The position numbers were made by a program, and so were the translations under genes. Positions 10,614-59,775 of a stretch of 64,000 nucleotides of DNA are shown here, piece after piece (the stretch's first letter is position 1; every line of letters starts with the position of its first letter). Under the pieces are notes generated by a model that worked only from the letters and a program-made list of their open reading frames with translations, ran no database searches and was not told the origin of the DNA. Source of the DNA: Alphaproteobacteria bacterium (GTDB lineage Bacteria > Pseudomonadota > Alphaproteobacteria > Rs-D84 > SZUA-605); NCBI GenBank assembly GCA_031549385.1, contig JAVBPW010000001.1:390661-454660 (forward strand). The letters are read 5' to 3'.

Positions 10614-10640
10614 AAGCCCATGAAGGGCTTTCTTTTATTT
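10614..10640 (-). terminator. Intrinsic terminator for rpsT (minus strand)
   Basis: AAAGCCCTTCATGGGCTTT hairpin followed by a U-run on the minus strand. Confidence 0.65.
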
Positions 10641-10658
10641 ATCTTAAAAGCCCTGAAA

Positions 10659-14995: not shown

Positions 14996-15094
14996 TTATA
15001 AACTCCATATTGTGGACTGCAAATCATGTTTGTATTAAAAAATCCACTTTATCAGTATCTATAACATAGGAAAGTTTTGGTTTTTTTGCAATGA

Positions 15095-33668: not shown

Positions 33669-36023
33669 ATGGAAGATACAAGAAAAAAATTAACTTTATC
33701 TATTAAATCTGCTCCAGTTAGCAATGCGCCTGGTGGAGTTAAGATAGAACGTAGAAGAAAAATTTTTAAGCCTGGAGAAAGTGTTGTTTCCAGTACTAAC
33801 TTGTCGTCTTCTGCTTCTGCAGAGCGATTGAAAAATATTTTAGATCAGGCGAAAAAAACTGATGAAAATAAATTAGATTTTTCTGCTCTTGATTCTAAGA
33901 GAAGAACTCTTATTGAAGAAGATAATCAAATCAGACAAGAAAGACAAAAGAAAGTCGAAAGTATTGTTGAAGAAGAAAAGAAAGAAGAAACTTCTAAACA
34001 ACCATCTCATGATTCTGGAAAAACCTTTAAAAGAACTGAAGAAGAACAACCAAAATCTTCTTTTATTAAAGAAGTGCCTAAAAACTTTAAGAAAGCAGAT
34101 AATTTTGATAAAAGAAAAATTACTGTTAAAGATATTTATGTTGATAATGGTGATGAATCAGGTGATGTTGTTGTTAGAGAAAGAAGACGCTCAATTGCAT
34201 CTTTCCAACGTAAACTTGAAAAACAACGTTTGAAAAATCTTGAAAAACAAACTGAATTAAAGCCTGTTATTAAAGAAGTTGAAATCCCTGATTTCATTTC
34301 TGTAAAAGATTTAGCGAATCGTATGTCTGTTGTTTCAGCACAAGTAGTAAAAAAATTAATGGAAATGGGTGTTATGGCTACTCTTAACCAAATTATTGAT
34401 GCCGATACTGCTCAATTAATTGTTGAAGAATTTGGTCATAAATTTAAACGTGTTGGTGAAGAAGAAACTATTGAAGGTACATTGAAAACTAAAGATGATG
34501 AAGCAACTCTAAAATCACGTCCACCTGTTGTGACTATTATGGGGCATGTTGATCATGGTAAGACTACATTATTAGATGCTTTGCGTGAAACTGATGTTGT
34601 GTCTACTGAAGCTGGTGGAATTACTCAACATATTGGTTCATATCAAATTGAAACAAAAAGTGGAAAACGAATCACTTTTATAGATACTCCTGGACACGCT
34701 GCATTCTCTGCTATGCGTGCAAGAGGTGCTAATATCACTGACATAGTTGTTTTAGTGGTTGCTGCTAATGATGGAATTATGCCACAAACAGTTGAAGCTA
34801 TTAGTCATGCTAAAGCTGCTGGAGTACCTATTATTGTTGCTATTAATAAGATTGATTTGGCAGAAGCAAATCCAACTAAAGTTAGATCTGAGTTATTAAC
34901 TCACGGGTTGGTTACTGAAGAATTTGGTGGAGATATTTTATCTGCTGAAATTTCTGCTAAGAAAAAAATGAATCTAGATAAGCTTGAAGATTTAATTTTA
35001 TTACAAGCTGAGATGTTGAATTTAAAAGCAAACCCTGATCGTAGTGCTGAAGGGGTGGTTATTGAAGCTGAAGTTGAAAAAGGATTTGGTTCTGTTGCTA
35101 CTGTTTTAATTCAAAAAGGTACTTTGAAGATTGGAGATGTTTTTGTTTCTGGTCAACAATGGGGACGTGTTAGAGCTTTAACTGATGCTTATAAAAATAA
35201 ATTAATTTCTGCTGGACCTGCTTTCCCTGTTATTGTTCTTGGATGGACTGGAAATTCTTCTGCTGGAGATGATTTTGTTGTAGTGGAAAATGAAGCAAAA
35301 GCTAGAGATATTGCAGCATATCGTGAAAAGAAATATAAAGAACATTTATTGGCTATTAAATCTAAATCTATGATGGAACAATTAATGAATGGTGTTAAAG
35401 ATGGAGATGTTAAAAAACTTACTATTTTGATTAAGGCTGACGTGAATGGATCAGCTGAGGCTATTCAAACTTCTATTATGCAAATTAAATCTGATAAAGT
35501 TAAACCTGAAGTTATTATGAGTGGGGTTGGTGAAATAAACGAATCAGATATTACTTTAGCTAAAACTGCTCGTGCTCTTGTTATTGGATTTAATGTTAGA
35601 GCTAATGCAACTGCTAAAGAATTGGCTAAACAAGAAGGAATTGATATAAGATATTATTCTATTATTTATAACTTACTTGATGATATTAAAATGGCTATGG
35701 AAGGTTTGTTAACTCCAGAAATAAAAGAAAATATTATTGGTACTGCAGATGTGCTTCAAGTATTTACAGTTGGTAAAGGAACTAAAGTTGCAGGGTGCAG
35801 AGTTGCAGAAGGTATTATTAAAAGAAATGCTAAAATACGTTTAGTTAGAGATAATATAGTTTTATACCAAGGTGAAATAGGACAAATGAAGCATGGTATG
35901 GACGATGTTAAAGAACGTAAAGAAGGCCAAGAATGTGGATTGTCATTTGATAAGTATAATGATATACAAGTGGGTGACAAAATAGAATGTTATGAAGAAG
36001 AATCAATCAAAAGTTCATTATAA
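33669..36023 (+). CDS. infB: Translation initiation factor IF-2
   Basis: G-domain '[14 protein letters not shown]', 'DTPGH', 'NKID'. Lys/Glu-rich N-terminal region. Confidence 0.95.
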
Positions 36024-36036
36024 TGGACTTGGGGCG

Positions 36037-36169
36037 CATTGAATTTTGGTTGCAAAGCAAAAGAGAAACTAAAAAATTTAACTTCACCGTATTTTAATAC
36101 GCCATCGTCAAATTTTTTAATTTACTTTTGTTTTCACTCAAAATTGAATGGTCAATGATATGTTTAAGA
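36037..36169. repeat. MITE-like intergenic palindromic repeat, copy B (subfamily 2)
   Basis: Head 'CATTGAATTTTGGTTGCAAAGCAAAAGAG', central palindrome 'CGTATTTTAATACG' flanked by inverted arms, tail 'CACTCAAAATTGAATGGTCAATGAT'. The tail is the inverted complement of the head (TIR). Confidence 0.7.
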
Positions 36170-36215
36170 AAAGTTTTTAATAAAAAATAAATATAAATTT
36201 AAAACTTAAAATTCT

Positions 36216-36860
36216 ATGAATGAAAATCAATATTATCGAATCGATGAAGGAAATCCTACTTATCTTCCTAATAAGTCTTTGAAGGTCTTTATGGAACTTT
36301 CTTCTCATAAAGGAGTTTATATCTTTAAGGAAATAGGTAAGTTTTATAAAGTAGACGTGTATGAAAAGAAATATAAAATTCTTTTTCATATTCCGGCTTC
36401 AGATGAAATGTTTCTTTATGATAAATATTCTTTGTCATATGAGAAAATTTTTGAAGGAGAAACTGGTGTTTCTTTTGAGATTAAGGAAACTTTTTATGAA
36501 GGTGGATTTTTGATAAAGAGGAATGATGAATTCTTCTTAACTAATTACTTTGCAGAAGTTACTTTGCTTGGTATGGAAGTTGGGCTTAATTGTTTTCTTA
36601 AAAAAGAGCAAAATCCAAATAAGCCGGAATTGAAGTATAAAATTTCAACAATTTATAAAGATGGTGTTGGAGAAGATCGTTGTTGCAGTTATGTTTTGGA
36701 AAAAGGATTTGTAGTTTGTAAGGATTTAAATAATCAATTACAAGTTTATCCAAGAGCTCCTGGGCAATATATTATTGAAGAAAACAATGAAATACGGGTT
36801 TATGTTTGTAAAGGTTCCTATTGGATATTGGAAAAATTCAATGTTCCAAGTAAAGAGTAA
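36216..36860 (+). CDS. Hypothetical protein (214 aa), island gene
   Basis: No signal or TM. No homology recognisable by eye. Ends at a bidirectional terminator. Confidence 0.5.
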   Translation: MNENQYYRIDEGNPTYLPNKSLKVFMELSSHKGVYIFKEIGKFYKVDVYEKKYKILFHIPASDEMFLYDKYSLSYEKIFEGETGVSFEIKETFYEGGFLIKRNDEFFLTNYFAEVTLLGMEVGLNCFLKKEQNPNKPELKYKISTIYKDGVGEDRCCSYVLEKGFVVCKDLNNQLQVYPRAPGQYIIEENNEIRVYVCKGSYWILEKFNVPSKE

Positions 36861-36863
36861 AAA

Positions 36864-36892
36864 AGCTCCCCGAAAGGGGAGTTTTTATTTTT
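36864..36892. terminator. Bidirectional intrinsic terminator (AAAAGCTCCCC-GAAA-GGGGAGTTTTT)
   Basis: Perfect hairpin with A/T runs on both sides, between convergent genes. Confidence 0.7.
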
Positions 36893-37556
36893 GTTTAGTA
36901 TTTGTTAAGAGCCATTGTTTGAATTCTACTATATCTTTTACTTCAGGAATCCAATTTAAATCTTCTGGTAAGTCTGTTGTAAATTCACAACGCATTCTTA
37001 TTGGATGAGCACCAACATTAATTGCTGCATGTTGATTATAGATTCTGTCATCTACTAGTATAGTTTCTTCAGCTTTTAATCCATATTTTTCAAAACAACT
37101 TTTTAACATATCTTCTTTTGCTGTGTCATGCATGAATTGTCTATGTTGTACGCATTCTATTGTAAGAAAATCTGTTACATCTTTTAAAAGTTCATTTAAT
37201 AGTTTCTTTTTTGTTTCTACATCAAAAGTAGCTGACATTGTGAATTGTTTGTAGCCTAATTCATTTAATTCTTTTAATGTTTCAATTACATTTGGATATA
37301 ATGGGCGATTGTTAAAGAATTCTAAACTGCTTGTAAAATCTTTATCCATTTGAGTTCCAAGTTCTGGATGAGTTTTTAATTCTAGTGCTCCATATTTTGG
37401 ACTTATTGGTAAAACTTTTGGTAGTTCTTCCCATTTAATTTTTCCATATTTATCTGAATAATTTGGATGTTTTGTTAAAAAATTAAAATATGCATAGTTT
37501 AAATTTGCTAATACTCCGTCTACATCCCAAAAAATGTTTTTTATTGTTTTTTTCAT
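36885..37556 (-). CDS. HAD-superfamily 5'(3')-deoxyribonucleotidase-like hydrolase
   Basis: HAD motif I 'IFWDVDGVLAN' (DxDGVL, as in the NT5C-type family). Downstream 'VDD' motif. Confidence 0.6.
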   Translation of the reverse strand: MKKTIKNIFWDVDGVLANLNYAYFNFLTKHPNYSDKYGKIKWEELPKVLPISPKYGALELKTHPELGTQMDKDFTSSLEFFNNRPLYPNVIETLKELNELGYKQFTMSATFDVETKKKLLNELLKDVTDFLTIECVQHRQFMHDTAKEDMLKSCFEKYGLKAEETILVDDRIYNQHAAINVGAHPIRMRCEFTTDLPEDLNWIPEVKDIVEFKQWLLTNTKQK

Positions 37557-37587
37557 GCTATTTAGTTTACCTGCTAAATTGTTATAA

Positions 37588-37950
37588 TCAATGGTTATTT
37601 AAAAACCTATAAAGTTGACTGGGTGTTAGAATCCAAAATTTCCTTATTCCTAAGATTTTCTTTATTAAGCCTACACATGAAAATCCAAAGAAGTACCATT
37701 TGGTTGATGGGCCGTAGAATTTTGTTTGTAATATTTTATATTCTTTTTTGAATTTTTTTAATGTGTCTTTTTCTTTTGTAAAGATTATTTGCGTCCAGCC
37801 TAGAAGGGGGTCTATGTATAGAAACCCTTCTTTGTTTTGTAACAATAGACTGCAATGTCTTTTTCCTTTTTTTAATGGTTTTAACATAATTAAATCACTA
37901 TCTTTAAAAAGAACATAAGCTTTTTTCCAATTACTTAGAGTTAGCTTCAT
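37588..37950 (-). CDS. Hypothetical small protein (120 aa), middle gene of the minus-strand island operon
   Basis: Overlaps the upstream ORF by 20 nt. Basic, with one hydrophobic segment 'WYFFGFSCVGLIKKILGI'. Confidence 0.45.
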   Translation of the reverse strand: MKLTLSNWKKAYVLFKDSDLIMLKPLKKGKRHCSLLLQNKEGFLYIDPLLGWTQIIFTKEKDTLKKFKKEYKILQTKFYGPSTKWYFFGFSCVGLIKKILGIRKFWILTPSQLYRFLNNH

Positions 37951-38296
37951 ATATAAATCCTTTCTTTTTGAAAATTACTGTTAGTTTATCTATGGCATCG
38001 TCCCACCATAGGGCGTGCAAAGATTCCTCTTTTATTCTGTAATCTGGAATGTAATAAAGATTTCCATATTTTGTTAATGTGTTTATATGTCGCTTTTGTA
38101 AGATACCTGCTAGGTTTAATTGTAGAACTATTTGTAAAATGTCATCAGGTGAACATGGGCGAATCGGTGAATATGAATTCTTTTCAAATCTGCTTAATTC
38201 TTGCCTTGCTTTTTGTGATCTGCAAAACCAAAACCATATTTCTTCTGCATTGTTGAATAATGTGTATCTTACTTCTTCTTGACTATGTATTTTCAT
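37931..38296 (-). CDS. Hypothetical small protein (121 aa), first gene of the island operon
   Basis: Trp-rich ('EEIWFWFCRSQKARQEL'). No recognisable domain. Confidence 0.45.
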   Translation of the reverse strand: MKIHSQEEVRYTLFNNAEEIWFWFCRSQKARQELSRFEKNSYSPIRPCSPDDILQIVLQLNLAGILQKRHINTLTKYGNLYYIPDYRIKEESLHALWWDDAIDKLTVIFKKKGFIYEANSK

Positions 38297-38451
38297 TTTG
38301 TATTTTCCCCTTCCTTATTAGAACAAAACTAGAACAAACATAACAGTGTAAAAATTAAATGTCAATATGTGAAAAGGAAAAAATTCTTTTTATTGTTGAT
38401 TTTTATCCTATAATATAGTATTACTAGAATAAAGAAAAAGAGGTATATTAT

Positions 38452-38682
38452 ATGAATCATGAACAAATATGGGTTGCTATAGATAAATTGGCTGAAATGA
38501 AGCATGTGTCTGTGTCTAGACTGGCTAGAGATGCTGGTTTAGATCCTACATCGTTTAATAAAAGTAAGAGAGTTAATTTTTGTGGGAAGAAAAGATGGCC
38601 TACTACTGAAAGCTTGGCTAAGGTGTTGGATGCAACTGGGGTTGATATTATGACTTTTGCTAAATTAGTTAATGGAAAATAA
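38452..38682 (+). CDS. Phage-repressor-like HTH DNA-binding protein (N-terminal domain only, no S24 peptidase domain)
   Basis: 'IWVAIDKLAEMKHVSVSRLARDAGLDPTSFNKSKR...RWPTTESLAKVLDATGVDIMTFAKL' resembles the N-termini of alphaproteobacterial CI/LexA-like prophage repressors. Divergent from the minus-strand operon. Confidence 0.55.
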   Translation: MNHEQIWVAIDKLAEMKHVSVSRLARDAGLDPTSFNKSKRVNFCGKKRWPTTESLAKVLDATGVDIMTFAKLVNGK

Positions 38683-38752
38683 TTTATATAAAATACTTGA
38701 CAAATAATGATTTTGTACTATATTAACAATATAAACTTAAAAAATATATAAC

Positions 38753-39028
38753 ATGAACACCAAATTTTTTATTAGGGCTCCAAAGGCTACACCATGTATT
38801 TTAATGAATTTTTTAAAATTCGTGGCAACAGATCAACCGGTTGAACAAATGATAGACGAAGGTAAGATGGATCTTAAGAAAGATTATAATCTTACTGAGG
38901 ATTTAATCATGTTCTTTGCTACTATTGTTGCTTTGAACACACCGTTGATTTTTAACGAAAGGGCAATGGAAATACTGGCTCAGAAGGAAAGCGTGCCGTA
39001 TGAGCAATTCTGTAAAATGTTTACATAA
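38753..39028 (+). CDS. Hypothetical small protein (91 aa)
   Basis: ORF followed by an intrinsic terminator about 39057-39088. Confidence 0.35.
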   Translation: MNTKFFIRAPKATPCILMNFLKFVATDQPVEQMIDEGKMDLKKDYNLTEDLIMFFATIVALNTPLIFNERAMEILAQKESVPYEQFCKMFT

Positions 39029-39088
39029 AATATAGTGTGAAAAGGTTAGTTGAGAGATAAGGTCGGAATTTACGGCCTTATTTTTTTA

Positions 39089-39439
39089 TTAAAATGCGTT
39101 TTTAATGTGTTTTGGAAGGGTGGTTTTGCTGAATGCTATGCAATCGAATCGATAGTTTGATTTTTGATATTTTGGGTTTTGCTTTATATATAAATTTGCA
39201 TTGTTTCTTATTCTTTGTTTTTGATTTTCAGATACTGAATGTAATGAATCTGACATGTTTTTCCTGAATTTAATTTCTATAAAACAAATTGTGTTTTTCT
39301 TTTTTGCGATTAGGTCTATTTCACCATTGGAACCTTTTTGACCGTGGCCGAATCGATGTTGCAATATTTCATAACCTTTTAATGCTAAGATTAACATTGC
39401 AACATATTCAGCTAATAATCCTTTTTTATTTCTTTGCAC
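39089..39439 (-). CDS. yraN: YraN-family (UPF0102) endonuclease
   Basis: 'GLLAEYVAMLILALKGYEILQHRF...GEIDLIAKKKNTICFIEIKFRKN' is the UPF0102 signature. Confidence 0.75.
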   Translation of the reverse strand: MQRNKKGLLAEYVAMLILALKGYEILQHRFGHGQKGSNGEIDLIAKKKNTICFIEIKFRKNMSDSLHSVSENQKQRIRNNANLYIKQNPKYQKSNYRFDCIAFSKTTLPKHIKNAF

Positions 39440-41222
39440 TCTTTTTAGTTTTTTTGTCTTGTGTTTTGAATTGTAAATTATACAAAGAATAATATGTTCC
39501 TTTTTTCTTCAATAATTGTTCGTGAGAACCTTGCTCTGTGATTTGACCTTTGTCTACTACATAAATTATATCTGAATTTATAATTGTTGATAGACGGTGA
39601 GCAATTGTGATTGTTGTTCGGGTCTTTATCAAATTATCAAGTGATTGTTGAACCAATTTTTCTGATTCAGTATCTAATGCAGATGTTGCTTCATCAAGAA
39701 GTAGAATTGGAGCATCTTTTAATATTGCACGTGCAATTGAAAGACGTTGCTTTTGTCCGCCTGATAGACGTATTCCTGCTTCACCTATTACTGTTTCATA
39801 ACCTTCAGGTAATTCAGAAATAAATTTATGTGCATTTGCTAAACGAGCTGCATTATAAATATCTTCTTTTGAAAATCTTTTGTTTGTTCCATAAGCAATG
39901 TTATTGAATATTGTATCATCAAATAAGATTACATCTTGTGATACTAAACCTATTTTATCATGTAAAGAATGTTGAGTTATTTCTTTTATGTTTTGATCAT
40001 CAATATATATTCCACCTTTGATAGTATCATAAAATCGTGGTATCAATTTTAATATAGTTGATTTACCACCACCTGATGGACCTATTAATGCTATGCTTTG
40101 CCCATGTTTGATTTTCATGTTAACATTTTTTAAAATAGGTTCTTCTGGATTGTAATGAAAGTCTACATTTTTGAATTCTATGTCACCTTTTTTGAACTTT
40201 AATTCTGGAGCATGTTTTACATCTTTGATTTCTGGTTCAAGGTCGAATACTTCAAACATTCTTTCTGCATTCTTTAGGGATGTTTGCATTTCTGCTACTA
40301 TTTTCGATAGACCTTTTAATGGACGATAACATGCAAATAAAGCTGTTAAAAATGTTGCAAATTGACCAGTTGTTAGTACTCCTAAAGATATTTGCCAGCT
40401 TCCAAAAACCATTGCACCTGCGATTGCAAATCCGCCTACCATTTCAAGAACAGGGCGATTGATTGCTCTTACTTTTAAATCTTTTTTGTTGATAGAATAC
40501 ATATATTCTATAATTTCACCAGCTCTTTTCTTTTCTGTGTTTTCTTTATTATAGATTTTTACAATAGGAATACTTTTGAATATTTGTGTTAAGTAACTTG
40601 TTATAATTTCATTTTGTACCATGCTTTTTCCAAATAACTTACGAACTCTTTTACCAAATCTTGATAAAGGAAGAATTACTGCTGGAAGGACTACTAGGAT
40701 TATTAATGACATTTGCCATGATTGAAATACCATTAAAACAAGTAAACAAATTATTGTTAATATTTCTTTCATGAAATCTGTGAAGAAATTTTGTAATACT
40801 TTATTTACTGCTTGAGAGTCTATTGTGTAGTTTGTTAGTAATGTTCCTGTTGATTTAGTATGAAAAAAATTTACATCCATTTTCATAAAATGACCAAACA
40901 TTCTGCTTTGAACTTCTTTTGTTATTTTTAATCCTGCTATACCCATTATATATGTATGAGCAAATAAAGATAAATTTTTTACACAGAACATTGCAACTAC
41001 TTGGAAAGCTATTATGTTTATCATTTTATAGTTTTGAACTAAAAATCCTTCATCAAAAATATCTTTCAAAAATGAATATGTGTAGGCTTCTGATGCTGCT
41101 GAAATTACCATAAAAATTACTGCGAAAATAACATATTTTACATATCTTTTTAGTGCAAAATTCCAGAGCTTTTTTATTAATTTAACATTGTCTTTAGTTA
41201 GTGTAAATTTTTCTTTTGCCAT
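39426..41222 (-). CDS. ABC transporter, fused permease and ATPase, MsbA-like lipid exporter
   Basis: Six-TM N-terminal domain. Walker A 'GPSGGGKST', ABC signature 'LSGGQKQR', Walker B 'ILLLDEATSALD'. Confidence 0.85.
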   Translation of the reverse strand: MAKEKFTLTKDNVKLIKKLWNFALKRYVKYVIFAVIFMVISAASEAYTYSFLKDIFDEGFLVQNYKMINIIAFQVVAMFCVKNLSLFAHTYIMGIAGLKITKEVQSRMFGHFMKMDVNFFHTKSTGTLLTNYTIDSQAVNKVLQNFFTDFMKEILTIICLLVLMVFQSWQMSLIILVVLPAVILPLSRFGKRVRKLFGKSMVQNEIITSYLTQIFKSIPIVKIYNKENTEKKRAGEIIEYMYSINKKDLKVRAINRPVLEMVGGFAIAGAMVFGSWQISLGVLTTGQFATFLTALFACYRPLKGLSKIVAEMQTSLKNAERMFEVFDLEPEIKDVKHAPELKFKKGDIEFKNVDFHYNPEEPILKNVNMKIKHGQSIALIGPSGGGKSTILKLIPRFYDTIKGGIYIDDQNIKEITQHSLHDKIGLVSQDVILFDDTIFNNIAYGTNKRFSKEDIYNAARLANAHKFISELPEGYETVIGEAGIRLSGGQKQRLSIARAILKDAPILLLDEATSALDTESEKLVQQSLDNLIKTRTTITIAHRLSTIINSDIIYVVDKGQITEQGSHEQLLKKKGTYYSLYNLQFKTQDKKTKKSAKK

Positions 41223-41271
41223 TTTTTCTCTTTTATTTATTTGTTAAATTGAAGTGTATTATAAAAAGAAC

Positions 41272-42510
41272 TTAAAGTAAAGTTCCTTGTTTTAATTTAG
41301 TTTGAACTTGAACTTTGCCGTCAAAGAATTCTATTTCATTTATCTCTTGGTTCTGAGAAGATTCAAGAGATGTTATTAATTTATCATTTTTATCACGTAT
41401 GATTGCGAATCCACGTTTTAAAACATTTTTAAATGAATAACTTTGAAGTAGTGAATTGAAACTTGTTATTTTATTTGAAGCTAATTCAAACTTTTGTTTG
41501 ATTATTCTTTGTATCTTGTCTGTCTTTTCATCAATTATTCTTAAGTATTCTTCTATGATTCTTGAAGGTGTTAAAATCTTTGATGATGAAGCTTGAAGCT
41601 TTAATCCATGTTTTTCTATAAAATTATATATACTAGTTCTTATTCTTTTTTCTTTTGTTAATAGTAGTTGTTCAACTTCTATTTTGACTGGGGTTGCATA
41701 TTCGGCTGCACCTGTCGGAGTTGGAGCACGAAGGTCTGAAGCAAAGTCTATTAATGTTGTATCTGTTTCATGGCCGACTGCTGATATTATTGGAATTACA
41801 GAATTTGCTGTTGCACGAACTACATTTTCTTCGTTAAATGGCATGAGGTCTTGAAATGAACCTCCACCACGAGCTACTATTATCACTGTTGGTCTTATAC
41901 TTTCTTCCATAGTGTTAAAATGATTAATTGCGTTTGATATATACACATCAGCCCCTGAACCTTGAACAGGTACAGGGTAGACTATTATTCTTGTTGGAAA
42001 GCGTTCTGTTATTCTGTGAATGATATCTTTGATTACTGAGCCTGTTGGGGATGTTACTACACCAATGATTTTTGGCATAAATGGAATTGATTTCTTTTTT
42101 GATTGATCAAATAAACCTTCTTTTGATAATCTTGCTTTTCGCTCTTCAATTTGTTTTAAAAGAGCGCCTATACCTGATACTTCAATTGCTTCAACTGTTA
42201 ATTGATAGTTTGACTGACCTGCATAGGTTGTTATTTTTCCGGTTGCTACTACTTCAAGTCCATTTTCTGGTATTGTTGATAATCTTGTCCATTTCCAAAC
42301 TACTGATTTTAATATGTAGTCTTTTCCACCAAAACTTTCTTTTAAATCAAAATAATAATGTCCATTACTGTGTTTTTTTAATCCACTGATTTCACCTTTG
42401 ATGCGAACTTTGGCAAATGCTGTTTCTACAACTGTTTTTAATACCTCTGAAAGTTGAGATACTGAGAGTTCTGTTGTGGAATTTACTATAGGATTTGGTT
42501 TTTCTATCAT
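41272..42510 (-). CDS. xseA: Exodeoxyribonuclease VII large subunit
   Basis: N-terminal OB fold ('VRIKGEISGLKKHSNGHYYFDLKE') and central catalytic region ('VIIVARGGGS'). Confidence 0.85.
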   Translation of the reverse strand: MIEKPNPIVNSTTELSVSQLSEVLKTVVETAFAKVRIKGEISGLKKHSNGHYYFDLKESFGGKDYILKSVVWKWTRLSTIPENGLEVVATGKITTYAGQSNYQLTVEAIEVSGIGALLKQIEERKARLSKEGLFDQSKKKSIPFMPKIIGVVTSPTGSVIKDIIHRITERFPTRIIVYPVPVQGSGADVYISNAINHFNTMEESIRPTVIIVARGGGSFQDLMPFNEENVVRATANSVIPIISAVGHETDTTLIDFASDLRAPTPTGAAEYATPVKIEVEQLLLTKEKRIRTSIYNFIEKHGLKLQASSSKILTPSRIIEEYLRIIDEKTDKIQRIIKQKFELASNKITSFNSLLQSYSFKNVLKRGFAIIRDKNDKLITSLESSQNQEINEIEFFDGKVQVQTKLKQGTLL

Positions 42511-42600
42511 TGTTGTATTATATGAGGGAAAATAGATGTTTTCAATAAATAATTTGACAAGAGAGCCAGAATTTACGATAATAGAACTATGCGACTTAGA

Positions 42601-43689
42601 ATGCCTCGTATTATTAGTTTTTATTTAATTTCTCAATTTTTGAGAAACTTTTTTATTTTAATGTTTTCATTTACTGGAATCGTTATGATTGGGGTGTTTA
42701 TTGAAAAGTATAAAAAATATGAAAGTTTAGATTTTATTAATGCTATTGGACTTATAGTTATGCAATTGTTTGAATTTATACATCCGGTTGTGCCATTATC
42801 TGTTTTGATTGCTATTATGATGACTTTTTGGAAAATGACTAGAACTTCTGAAATGGTGGTTATTAGAGGGTCTGGTATGTCTGTGTGGGGAATTCTTCGA
42901 CCTTTTATTACTTGTGTGTTTGTTATTGGACTTCTTGATATTTTTGTACTTAATCCTTTTACAGTTTATCTTAATAAGAAAGTAGAGGTATTACATTATA
43001 AGTATGGTATTTCTGCACAATCACCTTTTGCTTTATCAGAAAAAGGATTTTGGCTTCGTGAAAAAAAAGAAGATGGATATAATATCCTTTATGCTGATAA
43101 AATTAAGCAGGTTGAAAATAAGCTTTATTTGAATTCTATTATAATTTTTTATACTGACTTCGACCATAACTTTGTTAAAAGAGTGGAAGCAACAACTGGA
43201 GTGTTAGATAATTATTCTATATCATTTAAAAATGTTAAAGAAATTGCCCCTGGAAAAAAGATTGTTAGTTTAAAGCATCTTGTTATTCCTACACAACTTT
43301 CTATTCAAAAAATTAAAGATACTTATGCTTCAACAGATATTATTTCTTTTTGGGAATTGCCTGGACTTATTAGTTTCTTTAAAGATTTGGGTTTTTCTGT
43401 AAGACGACAGGTTTCATATTTTCTTAGCTTACTTATATTTCCATTATTTTTAGTTTCATTTGTTTTGATTGGAGCATGTTTTTCTTTGACTACACAACCC
43501 CGTGGAACTAAATTTTTTGCTAAGATGTCGCTGGGTATTGGGTGCGGATTTATAGCATATTTTATGGATCAAATTGTTTCTTCAATGGGTGCCAGTGGTG
43601 GTTTGCCAGTAATTCTTGGAGTTATTGGAATTCCTATGATGGCGATTTTCTTTTCTGTGTGGGGGTTATTTTACCTCGAAGAAGGGTAA
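42601..43689 (+). CDS. LptF/LptG-family LPS export permease (YjgP/YjgQ)
   Basis: 'RIISFYLISQFLRNFFILMFSFTGIVMIGVF' is the LptF/G N-terminus. Six TM helices with a periplasmic beta-jellyroll insert. Confidence 0.75.
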   Translation: MPRIISFYLISQFLRNFFILMFSFTGIVMIGVFIEKYKKYESLDFINAIGLIVMQLFEFIHPVVPLSVLIAIMMTFWKMTRTSEMVVIRGSGMSVWGILRPFITCVFVIGLLDIFVLNPFTVYLNKKVEVLHYKYGISAQSPFALSEKGFWLREKKEDGYNILYADKIKQVENKLYLNSIIIFYTDFDHNFVKRVEATTGVLDNYSISFKNVKEIAPGKKIVSLKHLVIPTQLSIQKIKDTYASTDIISFWELPGLISFFKDLGFSVRRQVSYFLSLLIFPLFLVSFVLIGACFSLTTQPRGTKFFAKMSLGIGCGFIAYFMDQIVSSMGASGGLPVILGVIGIPMMAIFFSVWGLFYLEEG

Positions 43690-43700
43690 AAATTTAATAC

Positions 43701-43795
43701 TATGGTCTGCAAATAATATTTTCATAAAATTTCCCAACATTGATGTATGCCAATACGTCTTCGTCGTTCAATTTTGTGAGAAATATCATTGTTCA
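43701..43795. repeat. MITE-like intergenic repeat, copy D (subfamily 2, 3' modules inverted)
   Basis: 'TGGTCTGCAAATAAT...GTATGCCAATACGTCTTCGTCGTTCAATTTTGTGAGAAATATCATTG'. The central palindrome is conserved. The tail submodules are present as reverse complements of those in copy B. Confidence 0.5.
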
Positions 43796-43823
43796 ACTCA
43801 TACTATTAAATTTTTTTAATTGA

Positions 43824-44624
43824 ATGTTTTTTAAGTTTGTTTTAATATGCATGTCTATGAGGGAGTTTAAATTTATTATTATAGCTTTATTGCTTATGTC
43901 ATCTGTTGCTTTTGCACAAAAAGTAAATACAGAAGATTTTAATTATATGGCTCCTGTCGATATTATGGGATTTTCTTATATTAAAAATACTAATGGAAAA
44001 GATTCTGTTAAAGGCAAAATACATGAGGTTATTAATAAATTTGCTAAAGAACAAAATAGAAAAGCTAATTTTATAACTGATTCAAAACTTAATTATAATA
44101 AAATTATTAGTTCTGTTATGGAAGGTAGTTTTGGAACAAATCGAATCGATTTTGTTGGTGGAATTTACTATGATGAACAAAATCTCCGTTATTTGAAATA
44201 TGTTAATAGACCTATTGCTCAGGATAATTTTATAGTTGTTTATAGACGTGATTTGAAAAATAAATATGTAGGTCTTAATGATTTTGAAAAATTAGTTAAT
44301 TCGTCAGCTAATTTGATAGTTATTGATGGGCAGGGATTTGAAGAGCTTTTGACTAATAAGTCAGTTGCTTCATATAATGATATGAAAACTTGCTTAGATA
44401 GAATTATGAAAAAAGATGAGATATTTGTAGGAAGTGAGAGAAATTTGAAGTCTTTTATTTTGAATAATCCTGAATATAAAGATCAAATAGTTGCTTTTAA
44501 TCTTAAAAGAGATGGTAAAATACTAACCCGTCGCCTTTACTTTGCTTTTAATAGAGATTTCTTAGATATGCCTGAAAATGCTGACCTTTTTAAGAATTTC
44601 TTCAATTTTCTCAAGAATTACTAG
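43824..44624 (+). CDS. Secreted or periplasmic hypothetical protein (266 aa)
   Basis: Signal peptide 'IIIALLLMSSVAFAQ'. No confident domain call. Confidence 0.55.
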   Translation: MFFKFVLICMSMREFKFIIIALLLMSSVAFAQKVNTEDFNYMAPVDIMGFSYIKNTNGKDSVKGKIHEVINKFAKEQNRKANFITDSKLNYNKIISSVMEGSFGTNRIDFVGGIYYDEQNLRYLKYVNRPIAQDNFIVVYRRDLKNKYVGLNDFEKLVNSSANLIVIDGQGFEELLTNKSVASYNDMKTCLDRIMKKDEIFVGSERNLKSFILNNPEYKDQIVAFNLKRDGKILTRRLYFAFNRDFLDMPENADLFKNFFNFLKNY

Positions 44625-44760
44625 AATTTAATATAAGTTTCCCTAATTTCCGGCTGTTTTATGGCCTAACTGTAATATATTGTAACATTTATTGATTTGT
44701 AAAAAGGCTGGTTTGGCTTTATCTTTAGAGTAGAAATAATACAAAGAAAGAGAAGTTATA

Positions 44761-45612
44761 ATGAAAGAATTTATGAACAATATAACACCATTAGTTGGAA
44801 AAGGCAATATCCATCCATCTGCTATTATCCATCCTACAGCAATTATAGAAGCTGGGGCTGTTATTGAAGCTGATGTTAAAGTTGGACCATACTGTGTTGT
44901 TGGTGCTGAAGTTATATTGCAAAAAGGTGTAGAATTAAAATCTCATGTGGTGGTTGCTGGGGTAACTACTGTTGGGGAAAATTCTTGTATCTATCCTTTC
45001 GCTGTTATTGGTGAAATTTCTCAAGATATGAAATTCTATGCTTCAAAAGAATACACTCCACTTGTAATTGGAAAAAATAATATTATTCGTGAACATGTAA
45101 CTATGCATATGGGAACACCTGCATCAACTGGAACAATTATTGGTGACAATAACTTATTCATGGTTGGAGTACACGTTGCACACGATTGTATAGTTGGAAA
45201 TAACTGTTTCTTAGCTAATAATGTAGGTTTAGCTGGACACGTTGAAGTTGATGATTTTGCTATTATCGGCGGTCAAACAGGAGTTTTACAATTTACTAAG
45301 ATTGGAAGAAACGCTATGGTTGGCGGTCAAACAGGATTACGTCAAGACGTATTACCTTATTCTATTGTTGAAGGAGCTCCTGCTTACTGGCAAGGTTTAA
45401 ACTTGGTTGGTTTGAAACGTAAAGGTTTTACTTTAGATCAAATTAAATCTATGCAAGAAGCTTATAATATCCTTTTCTCAGATAAAGGTGTTGTTGCTGA
45501 CAGAGTGAAAGAAATGAAAGAAAAATATTCTGATTTACCTGAAATAGCAGAAATTGTTAAGTTTATTGAAACAGGTTCAAAACACTCATTCCATCAACCT
45601 GTTAGAAAATAG
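44761..45612 (+). CDS. lpxA: UDP-N-acetylglucosamine acyltransferase
   Basis: Left-handed beta-helix hexapeptide repeats. 'MHMGT...HVAHDC' catalytic His region. Confidence 0.9.
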   Translation: MKEFMNNITPLVGKGNIHPSAIIHPTAIIEAGAVIEADVKVGPYCVVGAEVILQKGVELKSHVVVAGVTTVGENSCIYPFAVIGEISQDMKFYASKEYTPLVIGKNNIIREHVTMHMGTPASTGTIIGDNNLFMVGVHVAHDCIVGNNCFLANNVGLAGHVEVDDFAIIGGQTGVLQFTKIGRNAMVGGQTGLRQDVLPYSIVEGAPAYWQGLNLVGLKRKGFTLDQIKSMQEAYNILFSDKGVVADRVKEMKEKYSDLPEIAEIVKFIETGSKHSFHQPVRK

Positions 45613-45632
45613 TTTTCAAAAGTGGTAAAAAA

Positions 45633-45668
45633 ATCCCTTGTTTTCATTCAAGGGATTTTTTGTTTTTC
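45633..45668 (+). terminator. Intrinsic terminator between lpxA and lpxB
   Basis: AAATCCCTTG-TTTTCATTC-AAGGGATTT hairpin plus TTTTTGTTTTT. Confidence 0.65.
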
Positions 45669-45715
45669 AGTTTTTAAAGCTTTCTTTTATTATTAATTTT
45701 TGATATAATAATGCT

Positions 45716-46858
45716 ATGGCACAAAAGAAAATTTTCGTTATTGCAGGTGAAGCTTCAGGAGATATTTTAGCAGCTTCCGTTATTAGACAACTTAAGAATA
45801 AGGGTTGTATTATTAAGGGTCTTGGAGGAGCTGAAATGGAAAAGGTTGGAGTGAAGTCTATTGCTTCTATTGCCCCTATTTCTGTTATGGGAATTATGGA
45901 AGTTATTCCTAATCTTTTTAAAATTAAAAAACTATTTAAGAAAGTTATGAAGTCTATTAATAGATTTAAACCTGATTGTGTTTTAACTGTTGATTCTACT
46001 GGTTTTAATTTTATGATTGCTAAAGAATTACGTAAGCAAAATTATAAAGGGAAAGTTATTCACTTTGTATCACCTCAGATTTGGGCTTGGAAGGAAAAAA
46101 GAAAATATAAGGTTGCTAAGTTATATGATGAACTTCTTTGTCTTTTCTCTTTTGAAAAACCTTATTACAAAGGATTGAAATTAAAAGTACAAGTTGTTGG
46201 ACATCCTATTGTTGAACAAGGTGCTGATATGGGAAATGCGTTTAAATTTAAACGTAGAAATAAAATAAAAGATAATTCATTTATATTTGGAATTTTACCA
46301 GGTTCTCGTATGAGTGAGGTTTCTAAATTACTACCTGTGTTTTTAGAAACTGCTAAAAATATTTATCAAAAACATAAGGATGCTTTGTTTGTTATTCCTG
46401 TACTTCCTAATACTAAAAAGTTTATTAAAGAAGAAGTTAAAAAATACAAACTTCCTATTAAAATAGTTGAAGTTAATAAACATGATCGTTATGATATGTT
46501 TGCTGCACTTAATGGTGCTATATCTGCTTCTGGTACTGTTTCACTTGAACTTGGGTTAGCACGTGTGCCTCATTGTATATCTTATAAGATTAATGCTTTA
46601 ACTTATTTTATGGTAAGGCTTTTAATTAAAGTTAAGTATGCTAATATTTTTAACTTACTTGCGAATCGATTTTTAGTAAAAGAATATATTCAAAATGATT
46701 GTAATGTTAAGGATTTAACTGAATTTGGAGAAAGTCTTTTTGATAAAAGACAAACTGCTAAAATGAAAGAAAATTTAAAATATGGTGTGCAATTGTTAAG
46801 AGCAAATCATTTGTCACCTTCAAGAAAAGCTGCTCGAGAAATTTTAAAGGAGATTTAA
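45716..46858 (+). CDS. lpxB: Lipid-A-disaccharide synthase
   Basis: 'KIFVIAGEASGDILAASVIRQLK' is the LpxB N-terminus. GT-B fold, about 380 aa. Confidence 0.9.
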   Translation: MAQKKIFVIAGEASGDILAASVIRQLKNKGCIIKGLGGAEMEKVGVKSIASIAPISVMGIMEVIPNLFKIKKLFKKVMKSINRFKPDCVLTVDSTGFNFMIAKELRKQNYKGKVIHFVSPQIWAWKEKRKYKVAKLYDELLCLFSFEKPYYKGLKLKVQVVGHPIVEQGADMGNAFKFKRRNKIKDNSFIFGILPGSRMSEVSKLLPVFLETAKNIYQKHKDALFVIPVLPNTKKFIKEEVKKYKLPIKIVEVNKHDRYDMFAALNGAISASGTVSLELGLARVPHCISYKINALTYFMVRLLIKVKYANIFNLLANRFLVKEYIQNDCNVKDLTEFGESLFDKRQTAKMKENLKYGVQLLRANHLSPSRKAAREILKEI

Positions 46859-46859
46859 G

Positions 46860-47468
46860 ATGAAAAAAAATGGCGTTAATTTTTGGACCATTCCAAATAT
46901 TTTAACTTATATACGAATTATATCTATTGCACCTATGATTTGGTTGATGTTCTTGGCTAAAGGGTCTAATAATTATTTTGATATTTTTTTCTTTGGTAAT
47001 GTAGAATTTATGAGTTTTTTAGCTGCTTTCATTTATGCTTATGGAGCAGTGACTGATTGGCTTGATGGATATATTGCTAAGAAATATAATCAATTTTCTG
47101 ATTTTGGAAGAGCATTGGATCCTATTGCTGATAAGTTAATTGTTATAGCTGTTTTAATGGTTTTGTGTTTTACTAAATTTAATGCTTTTGAAGTTGTTCT
47201 TGCTTACTTGATTGTGTTTAGAGAAATTCTTATTTCTGGTTTTAGAGAAGCATTGGCTGATTATAATATGAAGATGCCTGTTATATTTGTTGCTAGAGTA
47301 AAAACATATATTCAAATGTTTGCTGTAGGCTTTTTAATGGCTTTTGATAGAACCAATATTTGGTATGATGTTGGTTTCTGGTTATTAGTTGTTGCTGTGG
47401 TGCTTACTCTTTATACTGGAGTGATATATATGAATACTATTATAAAAACACTTGTAGGAAAGAAGTAA
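46860..47468 (+). CDS. CDP-alcohol phosphatidyltransferase (PgsA-like)
   Basis: 'DWLDGYIAKKYNQFSDFGRALDPIADK' is the CDP-OH P-transferase motif D-x2-DG-x2-AR...G-x3-D-x3-D. Confidence 0.8.
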   Translation: MKKNGVNFWTIPNILTYIRIISIAPMIWLMFLAKGSNNYFDIFFFGNVEFMSFLAAFIYAYGAVTDWLDGYIAKKYNQFSDFGRALDPIADKLIVIAVLMVLCFTKFNAFEVVLAYLIVFREILISGFREALADYNMKMPVIFVARVKTYIQMFAVGFLMAFDRTNIWYDVGFWLLVVAVVLTLYTGVIYMNTIIKTLVGKK

Positions 47469-47470
47469 AC

Positions 47471-47588
47471 ATTTGAAAATTGGCTGCAAAGCAAAAAGAG
47501 TTAAAAGATTGCTTCACAATCACGTATATTAATACGCTCATGCGAAGACAACTTCCAACTTTTTAGTTTTCGCTCTATTTTGAAATGT
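47471..47588. repeat. MITE-like intergenic repeat, copy C (subfamily 2)
   Basis: 'TTGAAAATTGGCTGCAAAGCAAAAAGAG...CACGTATATTAATACGCTCATGCG...TTTTAGTTTTCGCTCTATTTTGAAATG'. Lies between convergent genes. Confidence 0.65.
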
Positions 47589-47593
47589 TTTAA

Positions 47594-48373
47594 TTAAAGA
47601 TAGGAAGAAAAGGTTATTAGTTTTTTAAAGCTTGGTAATTTAAACTTTTCTTTTGAGTTAGAGGTTTGTGCAAGGTTTTGTGAAGGAAGAGTGGCAAATG
47701 TCCATCCTTTCTTTTTTAATTCTGTGATTGCTTTTTTTAATCCTTCATAGGTTTCTGATTCTGGATGATTCATGTGAGCTATGATAATGTCACCAGATTT
47801 TACTTTGATTGTATTTTTATAAACTTGTTCCTTTTTTAATTTAGCACCTTGATCTGCGTTGATTGCAAAGCCTGCTATTTTGATGTGTTGAGATGATATT
47901 ACTTTTATTCCATTCTTATCATAAGTAGCAGTTCCTGAACGAAACCATGATGGTTTTGTGTGAGTTAATTTTTCTATTTCTTTTGAATTGTCTGTAATTT
48001 CATTAATTAATTCTTCTTTGGACTTTGTTCCTTTTATTCCATATACTGTTGTTTCTGTGGTTGATGCTGGTTTGTGATTTGTTCCATGATTTTCTATTTT
48101 AAATAATGGATTTAAAGATAATTTTTTTGCAATTTCAGGATTCTTTTTAATCCATTTACCTGATAAAAATAAAGTTGTTGGAATTTTGTTTTGAGTTAGA
48201 AAAACTATTAACCTTTTATCTGTTTTTCCATTGCAAGCATCTAAAGTTAAATATGCTATTTTTTCTTTTGTTGGAATGTTTGTTATGATTTCTGAAGAAT
48301 TAGAAATCATTGCAGCAAAAGACGTGCAAGAAAAACTCATTAAAAATGAGAATAATAGAATAGCTTGTTTCAT
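47594..48373 (-). CDS. Polysaccharide deacetylase (CE4/NodB-like), secreted
   Basis: Signal peptide. 'YLTLDACNG' resembles the NodB-type 'TFDDG' motif 1 (TLDA for TFDD). His-rich 'IENHGTNH' and 'IIAHMNHPE'. Confidence 0.6.
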   Translation of the reverse strand: MKQAILLFSFLMSFSCTSFAAMISNSSEIITNIPTKEKIAYLTLDACNGKTDKRLIVFLTQNKIPTTLFLSGKWIKKNPEIAKKLSLNPLFKIENHGTNHKPASTTETTVYGIKGTKSKEELINEITDNSKEIEKLTHTKPSWFRSGTATYDKNGIKVISSQHIKIAGFAINADQGAKLKKEQVYKNTIKVKSGDIIIAHMNHPESETYEGLKKAITELKKKGWTFATLPSQNLAQTSNSKEKFKLPSFKKLITFSSYL

Positions 48374-48378
48374 ATATT

Positions 48379-48690
48379 TTAAAATAATCCTGGTGGAATT
48401 GGTAAATTGCCAGTTGCAGATTTCATTTCTTTTTCTGAAGCTTCTGCTACTTTTGATAAAGCGTCTTTCATTGCAATTAATACTAAATCTTCTAATGTTT
48501 CTTTGTCGCTTAAAAGTTTGTCTGATATTGAAATTGATAATGGTTCTCTTTTACCATTTAATTTTATTGATATTAAATCATTTGAAGCAGAACTAGTAAA
48601 TTCCATAGCATTTAATTTTTCTTGTGCTTCTTTTATTTTTCTTTGTAGTTCCTGTGCCTTTTTTATCATATCAAACATTTTAAACTCCAT
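48379..48690 (-). CDS. ybaB: Nucleoid-associated protein YbaB/EbfC
   Basis: 'MFDMIKKAQELQRKIKEAQEKL...' is the YbaB signature. Follows dnaX as in many bacteria. Confidence 0.85.
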   Translation of the reverse strand: MEFKMFDMIKKAQELQRKIKEAQEKLNAMEFTSSASNDLISIKLNGKREPLSISISDKLLSDKETLEDLVLIAMKDALSKVAEASEKEMKSATGNLPIPPGLF

Positions 48691-48750
48691 CTTATTGGTT
48701 GCAAATAATGATAAAATTTTTGATTTTATACATTATTTTCTTTTTTATTT

Positions 48751-50286: not shown

Positions 50287-50369
50287 TTTCTATCCTCGTT
50301 TTTTATCTGTTTTGATTATAAGAGTTTTGAAATATATTGCAATAAAAAAGAGCCTTTTAAGACTCCTTT

Positions 50370-50897
50370 TTATTGTGAAATTATCATTGATAGTTTTTTA
50401 CCTTCCATCAAAGGTTCTTTTTCTATTTTAAAGTTGCCTTGTAGGTCAGCCTTGAACTTTTGTAGTAAATCATAACCCTTTTGTTTGAATTGTAGATCAC
50501 GACCTTTGAAACGTACTGTTAATTTTACTTTATCACCATGTTCTAAAAACTTTTGTGCTGCTTTAAGTTTTACTTCATAGCCTTCGCCTTCTATTGATGG
50601 ACCAAATGTTAATTCTTTTAGTTTTGTTATAACTTGATTCTTTTTTGCTTCTTGTTTCTTTTTTTGTTTTTCAAATTTGAAACGTCCATAATCCATGATT
50701 TTACATACTGGTGGCTCAAGGTTTGGTGAGATTTCGACTAGGTCTAGTCCTGCATTGTCAGCCATTGATAGAGCTTGAGATAGAGAGATTACTCCTATGT
50801 TTTCCCCGTTTTCGTCGATAAGACGTATTTGAGAAGCTCTGATTTCTTTGTTTTTTCTTAATTCATCTTCTTTTTTTACAAATTTTTTGTTGTCCAC
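50370..50897 (-). CDS. infC: Translation initiation factor IF-3
   Basis: 'KEIRASQIRLIDENGENIGV...DLVEISPNLEPPVCKIMDYGRFKFE'. GTG start in the track. A non-canonical AUU/AUA start upstream is possible, as is typical for infC. Confidence 0.9.
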   Translation of the reverse strand: MDNKKFVKKEDELRKNKEIRASQIRLIDENGENIGVISLSQALSMADNAGLDLVEISPNLEPPVCKIMDYGRFKFEKQKKKQEAKKNQVITKLKELTFGPSIEGEGYEVKLKAAQKFLEHGDKVKLTVRFKGRDLQFKQKGYDLLQKFKADLQGNFKIEKEPLMEGKKLSMIISQ

Positions 50898-59514: not shown

Positions 59515-59528
59515 TTCAAATTTATCTA

Positions 59529-59635
59529 ATTGGCTCAAGCCAAAAGGATTGAAAATTTTGCCACACATCATGTATGTTTAATATACTCAGGTGGCAAAAT
59601 TTACAATACTTTCGTTTTTGCTCAATTATCTGAAT
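59529..59635. repeat. MITE-like intergenic palindromic repeat, copy F (subfamily 1)
   Basis: About 70% identical to copy A. Hairpin arms 'TTGAAAATTTTGCCAC/GTGGCAAAATTTACAA' carry compensatory changes relative to A (AAAGAC/GTCTT becomes TGCCAC/GTGGCA). Tail 'ATACTTTCGTTTTTGCTCAATTATCTGAAT'. Confidence 0.65.
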
Positions 59636-59775
59636 TTGCTTGGAAAAATATAAATTTTAAAAGTGTTTTCTTTATTAACGCTTGACAAAGTATGTATTTT
59701 TTTGATACATTTCCCCGATATGGCCAGGGAAATAAATCTAAGGCCAAATTGTTAACTAAAAAAAAGGTGTAAAAA

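Follow-up and report, generated by a model that had tools for sequence, protein, structure and literature searches.

We identified a new family of hairpin-forming intergenic repeats in the genome of an uncultured alphaproteobacterium with 30.6% GC content. Five copies, A to E, lie in the analyzed stretch of 64 kb (the window), and a sixth, copy F, is located about 5 kb beyond its left end on L058, a Logan contig of the same genome that adds 8.6 kb on that side. The elements are approximately 125 to 135 nt long, AT-rich, and noncoding, and their six copies in about 73 kb correspond to roughly one per 12 kb. All six are intergenic, none being inside an open reading frame (ORF). The existence of one dispersed family of palindromic, hairpin-forming intergenic repeats at gene ends, as proposed in a preliminary description of the window, is supported. 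The status of the elements as a hairpin-repeat family is secure, its restriction to one lineage is well supported as far as the pattern search reached, and its mode of action is inferred. The family is new in sequence and falls within the known general class of bacterial palindromic, MITE-like intergenic repeats. Its less usual traits are conservation that is internal rather than terminal, strict polarity, and tight placement at stop codons.

A four-copy nhmmer profile matched copies A, B, C, and E on the plus strand of the window with E values of 5e-21 to 3e-29. Elsewhere in the window, all E values were >1, except on the opposite strands of these hairpins. With copy F included, the E values ranged from 1e-15 to 1e-29. 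The combined arm pattern TTGGYT-N5-6-CAAAAR-N50-80-TTTNGTTYTYRCTC had four matches in the 64 kb, exactly at A, B, C, and E, where the chance expectation was 0. A covariance model built from A, B, C, E, and F and run unfiltered over the window and L058 gave scores of 132 bits for A, 114 for B, 107 for C, 103 for E, 73 for F, and 25.6 for D. Each of the clean copies A, B, C, and E was predicted to fold into a single long hairpin with fold z scores of -4 to -6, and none of 200 shuffled sequences folded as well on either strand. Multiple alignment showed the same motif order in all copies. Chance similarity of AT-rich, low-complexity intergenic sequence could be suspected in a genome of this GC content, with A/T runs in the motifs themselves, and much of the similarity of copy D does lie at that level. 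However, the nhmmer E values, the four pattern matches against none expected, the constant motif order, and a covariation signal above every control (described below) all contradict it. For A, B, C, E, and F, chance similarity is refuted by the profile, the pattern, the covariance model, and the covariation, and the probability left to this explanation is negligible. At 15020 to 15100, where a possible relic copy had been suspected, the similarity is at chance level: no nhmmer or covariance-model match fell inside the segment, the nearest being at 15142 to 15218 with an E value of about 9, and its fold was no better than those of shuffled sequences (z of +0.1 and +1.0).

Copies B and C were present with the head, central palindrome, and tail originally attributed to them (fold z of -4.6 and -4.0, respectively). 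Their locations were correct and their limits slightly wider than first given, at about 36029 to 36162 for B and 47466 to 47594 for C. Copy B (plus strand; nhmmer E of 5e-21; 113.6 bits at 36032 to 36159) begins 5 nt past the infB stop codon (36021 to 36023) and leaves 53 nt to the next plus-strand gene (36216). Its predicted RNA fold has an energy of -34.7 kcal/mol (z of -4.55), which was equaled by none of 200 shuffles. From head through center to tail, B reads TTGAATTTTGGTTGCAAAGCAAAAGAG, CGTATTTTAATACG, and TTTTCACTCAAAATTGAATGGTCAATGAT. On the plus strand, its conserved 5' arm block is at 36046 to 36063 (TTGGTTGCAAAGCAAAAG), the apical near-palindrome that forms the 5-bp apical helix of the family is at 36088 to 36101 (CGTATTTTAATACG), and the conserved 3' arm block is at 36124 to 36139 (ACTTTTGTTTTCACTC). 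Copy C (plus strand; nhmmer E of 5e-29; 106.9 bits; fold z of -3.95 on the plus and -5.38 on the minus strand) reads TTGAAAATTGGCTGCAAAGCAAAAAGAG, CGTATATTAATACG, and TTTTCGCTCTATTTTGAAATG in the same order. It occupies the entire gap between the convergent genes for a CDP-alcohol phosphatidyltransferase (pgsA-like) and a polysaccharide deacetylase. The base of its hairpin overlaps the stop codon of the pgsA-like gene (47466 to 47468) and extends to position 47594, the first base of the deacetylase stop codon (47594 to 47596).

Copies A (1986 to 2115) and E (59515 to 59645), assigned earlier to another subfamily but considered kin of B and C, indeed belong to the same family. Copy E (plus strand; nhmmer E of 2e-27; 102.6 bits; fold z of -5.5) forms a hairpin at 59517 to 59638, an inverted repeat with 48-nt arms located 2 nt past the secF stop codon (59512 to 59514), and a promoter-like TTGACA box and acpP (59776) lie downstream of it. 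Copy A (plus strand; nhmmer E of 3e-29; 132 bits; fold z of -4.4 on the plus and -6.1 on the minus strand) lies between two divergent genes, a minus-strand flavodoxin-like gene and ileS. It is 15 nt from the start codon of the flavodoxin-like gene (1968 to 1970), whose ribosome-binding site is at about 1980 to 1983. A repeat scan linked the tail of B to positions 2072 to 2115, within A. The 5' extension TTGGGG and the 3' extension CAATGAT are common to A, B, and F only. Copy F, oriented like the others, begins 0 to 4 nt after the mlaD stop codon; its 3' arm holds a unique 57-nt GC-rich insertion, and with the insertion removed the sequence folds into the family hairpin.

Copy D is a genuine but degenerate member. 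It aligned end to end with the covariance model on the plus strand (25.6 bits; E of about 0.007), and it extends from 43687 to 43820 rather than from 43701 to 43795 as previously delimited. Thus delimited, it starts with the TAA that ends the LptF/G gene (43687 to 43689; Pfam LptF_LptG) and stops 3 nt short of the next ORF (43824). The outer stem of D comprises 17 bp with one central C·C mismatch, and D was predicted to form a single long hairpin (DNA fold z of -3.5; none of 200 shuffles as good). The inverted tail pieces from which a palindrome-mediated rearrangement had been deduced are partly real: the strings are present, the segment at 43763 to 43783 matches the reverse complement of the A-type tail over 14 nt exactly plus another 7 nt, and a match of 14 nt was reached by 4 of 1,000 shuffles. 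Such a rearrangement is possible, but it is not needed to explain the overall layout of D, which is the normal one, end to end on the plus strand.

Each copy forms one imperfect hairpin of approximately 46 bp over its full length, composed in order of an outer stem, a 5' block, a middle stem, the apex, the middle return arm, a 3' block, and the outer return arm. The pairing of head with tail within each copy, which had been predicted, is supported. The conserved 5' block is TTGGYTGCAAAGCAAAAG-like, with the consensus TTGGYT-N5-6-CAAAAR and a length of 17 to 18 nt, and the conserved 3' block has the consensus ACTTTYGTTYTYRCTC and a length of 15 to 16 nt. Because the 5' block exceeds the 3' block by 2 to 3 nt, the internal loop is asymmetric. 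A G·U pair (TTGG versus CTC; G·T in DNA) is invariant across all five high-scoring copies. The apex is also conserved (ATCAYGTA…TACGCTCAKG, with a 5-bp helix), and apical pairing was present in 88% of cells. The central mismatch of the outer stem consists of the same word on both arms and is kept in every copy, as TTGAA/TTGAA in A, B, C, and F, TTATCT/TTATCT in E, and TACTAT/TACTAT in D.

The helices between the blocks differ in sequence among the copies and keep their pairing. In a plain MAFFT alignment, 83.8% of the cells were paired and 18 of the 46 pairs showed double changes; none of 500 shuffles matched this result, and sliding the partner by 1 to 3 columns lowered the paired fraction to 32 to 53%. 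A model-based alignment gave similar values (83.5% paired, double changes in 22 of 46 pairs, 0 of 500 shuffles, and 34 to 54% after sliding). The hairpin consensus was also recovered by RNAalifold from trimmed sequences with RIBOSUM scoring. On the plus strand of the four clean copies, G·U pairs outnumbered A·C pairs by 11 to 3, an excess that is not decisive because it is expected on a G- and T-rich leading strand. The conserved blocks and the covarying helices at only about 55% identity indicate long-term maintenance of the hairpin, which could be due to selection or to hairpin-templated correction.

The copies are old, with a pairwise identity of just 44 to 73% and no young pairs. By part, identity was 57 to 81% in the blocks, 32 to 83% in the outer stem, and 28 to 70% in the middle stem. 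Similarity among the copies forms a mosaic: the identity of A and B is 83% in the outer stem and 34% in the middle stem, A and E show the opposite relation (32% and 70%, respectively), and C and F are 86% identical in the apex. Thus, the division into one subfamily of B, C, and D and another of A and E, made in the preliminary description, is unsupported, and the copies appear, from this mosaicism, to have exchanged segments with each other.

The layout of a MITE flanked by terminal inverted repeats (TIRs), which had also been proposed, did not hold. The outer arms were among the least conserved parts, and conservation was concentrated internally and at the apex. As a deletion derivative of an insertion sequence (IS) with a DDE transposase, mobilized in trans via its TIRs, a classical MITE would be small, AT-rich, multicopy, and noncoding, as these elements are, with ends complementary within each copy, and TA is found at both ends of C and D. 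However, the termini are unconserved between copies, the conserved parts being internal, and the window contains no parent IS. No transposase, RAYT, Y1/TnpA, or integron integrase gene was found by the Pfam scan among about 50 window ORFs, which were housekeeping genes or had no Pfam match; the only tyrosine recombinase among them was a XerC/D-like gene (15095 to 16027). By inspection, no consistent target-site duplication (TSD), TA or other, was seen at the hairpin bases of A to F, where the AT-rich flanks could mask very short ones. Moreover, blastn found no match in the PLSDB plasmids, none for copy B in 5,426 complete Escherichia coli genomes (word size 11), and only one marginal 43-nt match in phages (E of 0.03). 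Since neither conserved termini nor target duplications nor, among the scanned ORFs, a transposase were found, we regard a classical MITE as very unlikely. Among the other ORFs of the window, the protein encoded at 5924 to 7213 had no Pfam match and is a paralogue of the adjacent TPR protein, and an autotransporter-like ORF is also present.

The IF2 protein of the host is 76% identical to that of one JGI fragment and at most 60% identical to all others; its named matches are Alphaproteobacteria and Rickettsiales metagenome-assembled genomes (MAGs), at 56 to 60% identity at most. In the fetched sequence of the relatives with IF2 identities of 76%, 60%, and 57%, no element was found. The combined arm pattern was searched against 185,579 GTDB species genomes, 241 million JGI metagenome records, and IMG/VR, and the 18, 34, and 1 stretches that it matched, respectively, were all chance according to nhmmer and the covariance model. 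Since the pattern catches four of the six known copies, a genome with dozens of copies should have been detected. Within the reach of this pattern, the family appears to be restricted to the lineage of its host.

Copies B, C, D, E, and F each follow a co-oriented gene, beginning 0 to 8 nt past its TAA stop codon, with D starting at the stop codon of the lptF/G-like gene itself. For B, E, and F, the copies with spare room in their gaps, the probabilities of offsets this short were about 0.10, 0.02, and 0.06, or about 0.007 when combined by Fisher's method. The copies are flanked by single-copy housekeeping genes, namely, infB, secF/acpP, the lptF/G-like gene, the pgsA-like gene, and ileS. All six copies share one polarity (two-sided p of about 0.03), and the GC skew is positive throughout the window (+0.11 to +0.24), so the plus strand is the leading-strand sequence, that is, the lagging-strand template. 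Copy A is the exception in placement, as it has no co-oriented upstream gene. Because it abuts the ribosome-binding site of the minus-strand gene, A, if transcribed, is probably read in the opposite sense. A T-box or other leader upstream of ileS was ruled out, as the same element trails unrelated genes and has no Rfam match. An RPE-like peptide-coding frame was likewise ruled out by stop codons, which interrupt all reading frames in all copies (1 to 6 per frame). No tRNA or tmRNA was found, and no conserved sigma-54, CtrA, parS, IHF, or CcrM (GANTC) motif was seen by eye.

A terminator or regulatory-RNA role for the elements is plausible. A consensus terminator scan of 35000 to 50000 found four terminator-like sites, none of which was in B, C, or D, and reading of the sequence revealed no canonical terminator in the gaps holding E and F. 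Canonical terminators do occur elsewhere in the genome (36861 to 36886 and 45628 to 45661), and the two nearest relatives carry a canonical GC hairpin with a T-run directly after infB, which corresponds to the site of B here. Placement just 3' of stop codons, the lack of any other terminator there, and the presence of one in the relatives together favor a 3'-end stem-loop. A U-run at the stem base is present only in C and D, and four of the six copies are without it. Because the hairpins are long and AU-rich and only these two have a U-run, most copies are not canonical intrinsic terminators.

The most likely reading, to which we give about an even chance, is that the family is an ERIC/RPE-like palindromic repeat of old age whose copies are co-transcribed and form stem-loops at mRNA 3' ends. 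The repeats would have spread in the past as a nonautonomous hairpin element and would have survived only in the short stretch, safe for such elements, from a stop codon to the following promoter. At present, they would be co-transcribed at the 3' ends of leading-strand genes, where the long stem-loop may work as a 3'-end structure by blocking 3' exonucleases, providing a site for processing, or standing in for an intrinsic terminator. At the convergent pgsA-like and deacetylase pair, C may act in both directions. Selection on the stem-loop, possibly together with hairpin-templated repair, would then preserve the pairing. Transcription, 3' ends, and processing of the elements are all inferred, from the sequences of a small sample, six copies in one genome. 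Bacterial repeats of 100 to 200 bp with long stem-loop transcripts have precedent (PMC2229807, PMC10969869), and the effect of co-transcribed ERIC on mRNA stability depends on its orientation (PMC2229807), with similar behavior in other small repeats (PMC10969869). On the other hand, the uniform polarity is equally explained by the direction of replication, the hugging of stop codons could reflect tolerated insertion sites, and compensatory changes can arise in a DNA palindrome via template switching without selection on RNA.

In an alternative reading, the hairpin would act in single-stranded DNA (ssDNA), as in a REPIN or an IS200/IS605-type mini-element. A strand-specific enzyme of the HUH/Y1 type or similar would then recognize the asymmetric hairpin in the lagging-strand template, with polarity set by replication and any RNA effects incidental. 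The single polarity of all six copies, on the leading-strand sequence as judged by the GC skew, fits such a replication-oriented mechanism equally well, as does the context of copy A, for which polarity is the only property shared with the other five. The asymmetry and mismatches of the hairpin are conserved, and strand discrimination by ssDNA recombinases at attC sites and IS608 ends relies on such features. The copies also folded well with DNA parameters (z of -3.1 to -5.5), and the absence of TIRs and TSDs is expected of this class. However, no Y1, RAYT, or TnpA gene was found among the approximately 50 window ORFs scanned, and no cleavage tetranucleotide or terminus is common to all copies, TTGGGG…CAATGAT being found just in A, B, and F. 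The divergence of the copies, without young pairs, points to no recent activity, and the apex, which is the variable part of REPINs, is conserved here. In addition, because the directions of genes and of replication coincide in the window, RNA-level and ssDNA-level mechanisms are inseparable there. We consider an ssDNA-level element doubtful but not far-fetched.

Conserved loops with covarying helices are also the classic signature of a dedicated structured RNA motif, either acting in cis in 3' untranslated regions (UTRs) or processed into a small RNA, with a specific protein recognizing the internal loop and the apex. The G·U pair kept in the five high-scoring copies, the greater frequency of G·U than of A·C on the plus strand, and the sense orientation of five of the six copies directly 3' of genes are consistent with this explanation. 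However, strand composition alone predicts the G·U bias, both strands fold about equally well, and the context of A is antisense or 5'. The family tolerates the 57-nt insertion in F and the severe degeneration of D. Rfam gave no gathering-score match in the window and nothing overlapping any copy at E values up to 1; around B, at E values up to 10, only chance-level matches were obtained (E of 4.5 and 8.5), far below the gathering scores. The absence of the element from relatives and from all collections scanned would also be unusual for an RNA with a conserved partner. A dedicated RNA motif is unlikely. To about the same small degree, we entertain the idea that the family is not decayed selfish DNA but a polar, protein-recognized module whose asymmetric loop and apex are read on one strand. 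It might be an RNA element of 3' UTRs to which a lineage-specific protein binds, thereby determining the fate of mRNA 3' ends genome-wide, or a replication-oriented ssDNA signal, the hairpin counterpart of polar chromosome motifs. Either version would account for the single polarity, the internal blocks, and the pairing kept at about 55% identity.

The blocks of approximately 130 nt account for several otherwise empty intergenic gaps and should be masked or modeled before small RNAs or terminators are predicted in this lineage. If the elements replace intrinsic terminators or shape mRNA 3' ends, as in the reading of a co-transcribed 3'-end stem-loop, they would be another case of a domesticated selfish palindromic repeat in a reduced, AT-rich alphaproteobacterial genome, parallel to ERIC in enterobacteria and RPE in Rickettsia. 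Given a whole-genome scan, their strict polarity and conserved internal loops could distinguish RNA-level from ssDNA-level selection on hairpin repeats.

Among known repeats, REP and REPIN sequences resemble the present family in being extragenic, often located at the 3' ends of genes, and hairpin-forming. The pairing of REP hairpins is kept by compensatory change, and REPs stabilize upstream mRNA. A strand-specific ssDNA mechanism of the REP/RAYT type would fit the single polarity of A to F. REPs are units of 20 to 40 nt with a conserved head tetranucleotide, and a REPIN consists of two units around a variable spacer; in A to F, in contrast, the apex is conserved and the ends are variable, the arm blocks match each other only imperfectly as inverted copies, no head motif is common to all, and the scanned window ORFs lack a RAYT gene. 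Rho-independent terminators and SPRITE-type repeats are similarly located directly 3' of stop codons, and the A-run and U-run of C and D are like those of a bidirectional terminator, but the stem of A to F is an AU-rich helix of about 46 bp full of conserved mismatches rather than a short GC-rich stem with a U-run. Integron attC sites, which lie in cassette arrays beside an integron integrase gene and have conserved R/L boxes at the hairpin base, differ from A to F: the flanking genes here are housekeeping genes, the scanned ORFs include no integron integrase, and no box at the hairpin base is conserved across the copies. The Correia/NEMIS repeats of Neisseria are alike in kind, being repeats of 100 to 155 bp that are co-transcribed with their neighbors and form long stem-loops that are RNase III substrates (PMC10969869). 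However, their conserved 24-bp TIRs, TA duplications, embedded promoters, and IHF site have no evident counterpart in A to F.

The closest parallels were found in ERIC and the Rickettsia palindromic elements (RPEs). ERIC (IRU; 127 bp) is of nearly equal size, is an imperfect palindrome as a whole element, and is strictly intergenic in transcribed regions next to genes; its transcript, as in A to F, is predicted to form one long stem-loop (PMC2229807). There is no sequence similarity between the two, as judged by blastn of copy B against the E. coli genomes, and the host here is an alphaproteobacterium. ERIC also has short conserved TIRs, TA ends, and TSDs (PMC2229807), whereas the termini of A to F are variable and no TSD was found; in addition, ERIC contains ORFs and A to F do not. 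The RPE families (105 to 146 bp), which we compared by description only, share with A to F an AT-rich alphaproteobacterial host, a size in the range of about 105 to 150 bp, a long predicted stem-loop, old and diverged families, and no known transposase (PMC2229807, PMC10969869). The named IF2 relatives of the host include a Rickettsiales MAG, but the host is not a Rickettsia (IF2 identity to the named Alphaproteobacteria and Rickettsiales matches of at most 56 to 60%). RPEs carry an open frame and are often inserted in frame in protein genes and in RNA genes, whereas A to F have stops in all frames and are intergenic in six of six cases. The family can be assigned with good support to the heterogeneous class of small bacterial repeats that are palindromic or MITE-like, with ERIC and the RPEs as its closest analogues.

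The degenerate copy D of the long-hairpin repeat contains a stretch that resembles an inverted piece of a tail. Positions 43763-43783 of the window matched the A-type tail in reverse-complement orientation (TTCTCAC..AAAATTGAACGAC) over 14 nt exactly plus a further 7 nt, and an inverted match of 14 nt was reached by only 4 of 1,000 shuffles. This match suggests a local inversion or a template switch inside the palindrome. Another alteration was found in copy F, which lies on L058, a Logan contig of the same genome reaching 8.6 kb to the left of the window. This copy, which is situated some 5 kb before the start of the window, contains a 57-nt insertion on the minus strand of the contig (L058:6733-6789; GTTGTTATACAACTTGCGGGCTTCTCGTAAGCGAACAAGTTCGAACTCGTCGGGCGC) between the conserved 3' block and the outer 3' arm. 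The insertion, with a GC content of roughly 58%, is unique to copy F; no second copy was found in the DNA searched, and it showed no tRNA and no Rfam match.

The repeat scan of the window also showed a stretch common to the 5' leaders of sspB and ybaB/ebfC, both of them minus-strand genes (14996-15028 and 48678-48710), with 79% identity across 33 nt. The ribosome-binding site falls within this stretch, as does a motif, GGWYTGCAAAT, that is similar to the conserved 5' block of the element. The preliminary description had proposed a relic copy at 15020-15100, and this likeness of the leaders to the 5' block is probably the source of that call. The similarity between the two leaders may reflect a real shared leader or may be due to chance.

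Among the other genes of the window, a large open reading frame (62505-64000) with a signal-peptide-like start runs off the window end. Its predicted product contains Gly/Asn/Ser-rich repeats and resembles an autotransporter passenger domain, and no homologue was found at E values up to 0.001 in a set of 5.8 billion proteins. Two adjacent paralogous genes are located at 5924-7213 and 7257-8066, and their products are 40% identical across 119 aa. The product of the second gene contains TPR repeats, and that of the first has only one homologue, a distant one, in the whole protein collection.

Each 8-kb bin from 1 to 64000 showed a strongly positive GC skew, with values between +0.11 and +0.24 regardless of gene orientation, thereby indicating that the whole window lies on one replichore, with the plus strand as the leading strand.

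Canonical terminators consisting of an A-run, a GC hairpin, and a T-run were found at 36861-36886, 45628-45661, 8060-8093, 10604-10641, and 50340-50376, several of which are bidirectional. Thus, the genome uses ordinary intrinsic terminators beside the long hairpin repeats. Both of the nearest relatives carry a canonical terminator with a GC stem and a T-run within 5 to 20 nt downstream of infB (L054:2700-2745 and L055:12400-12445), and copy B occupies this same post-infB position in the window genome.
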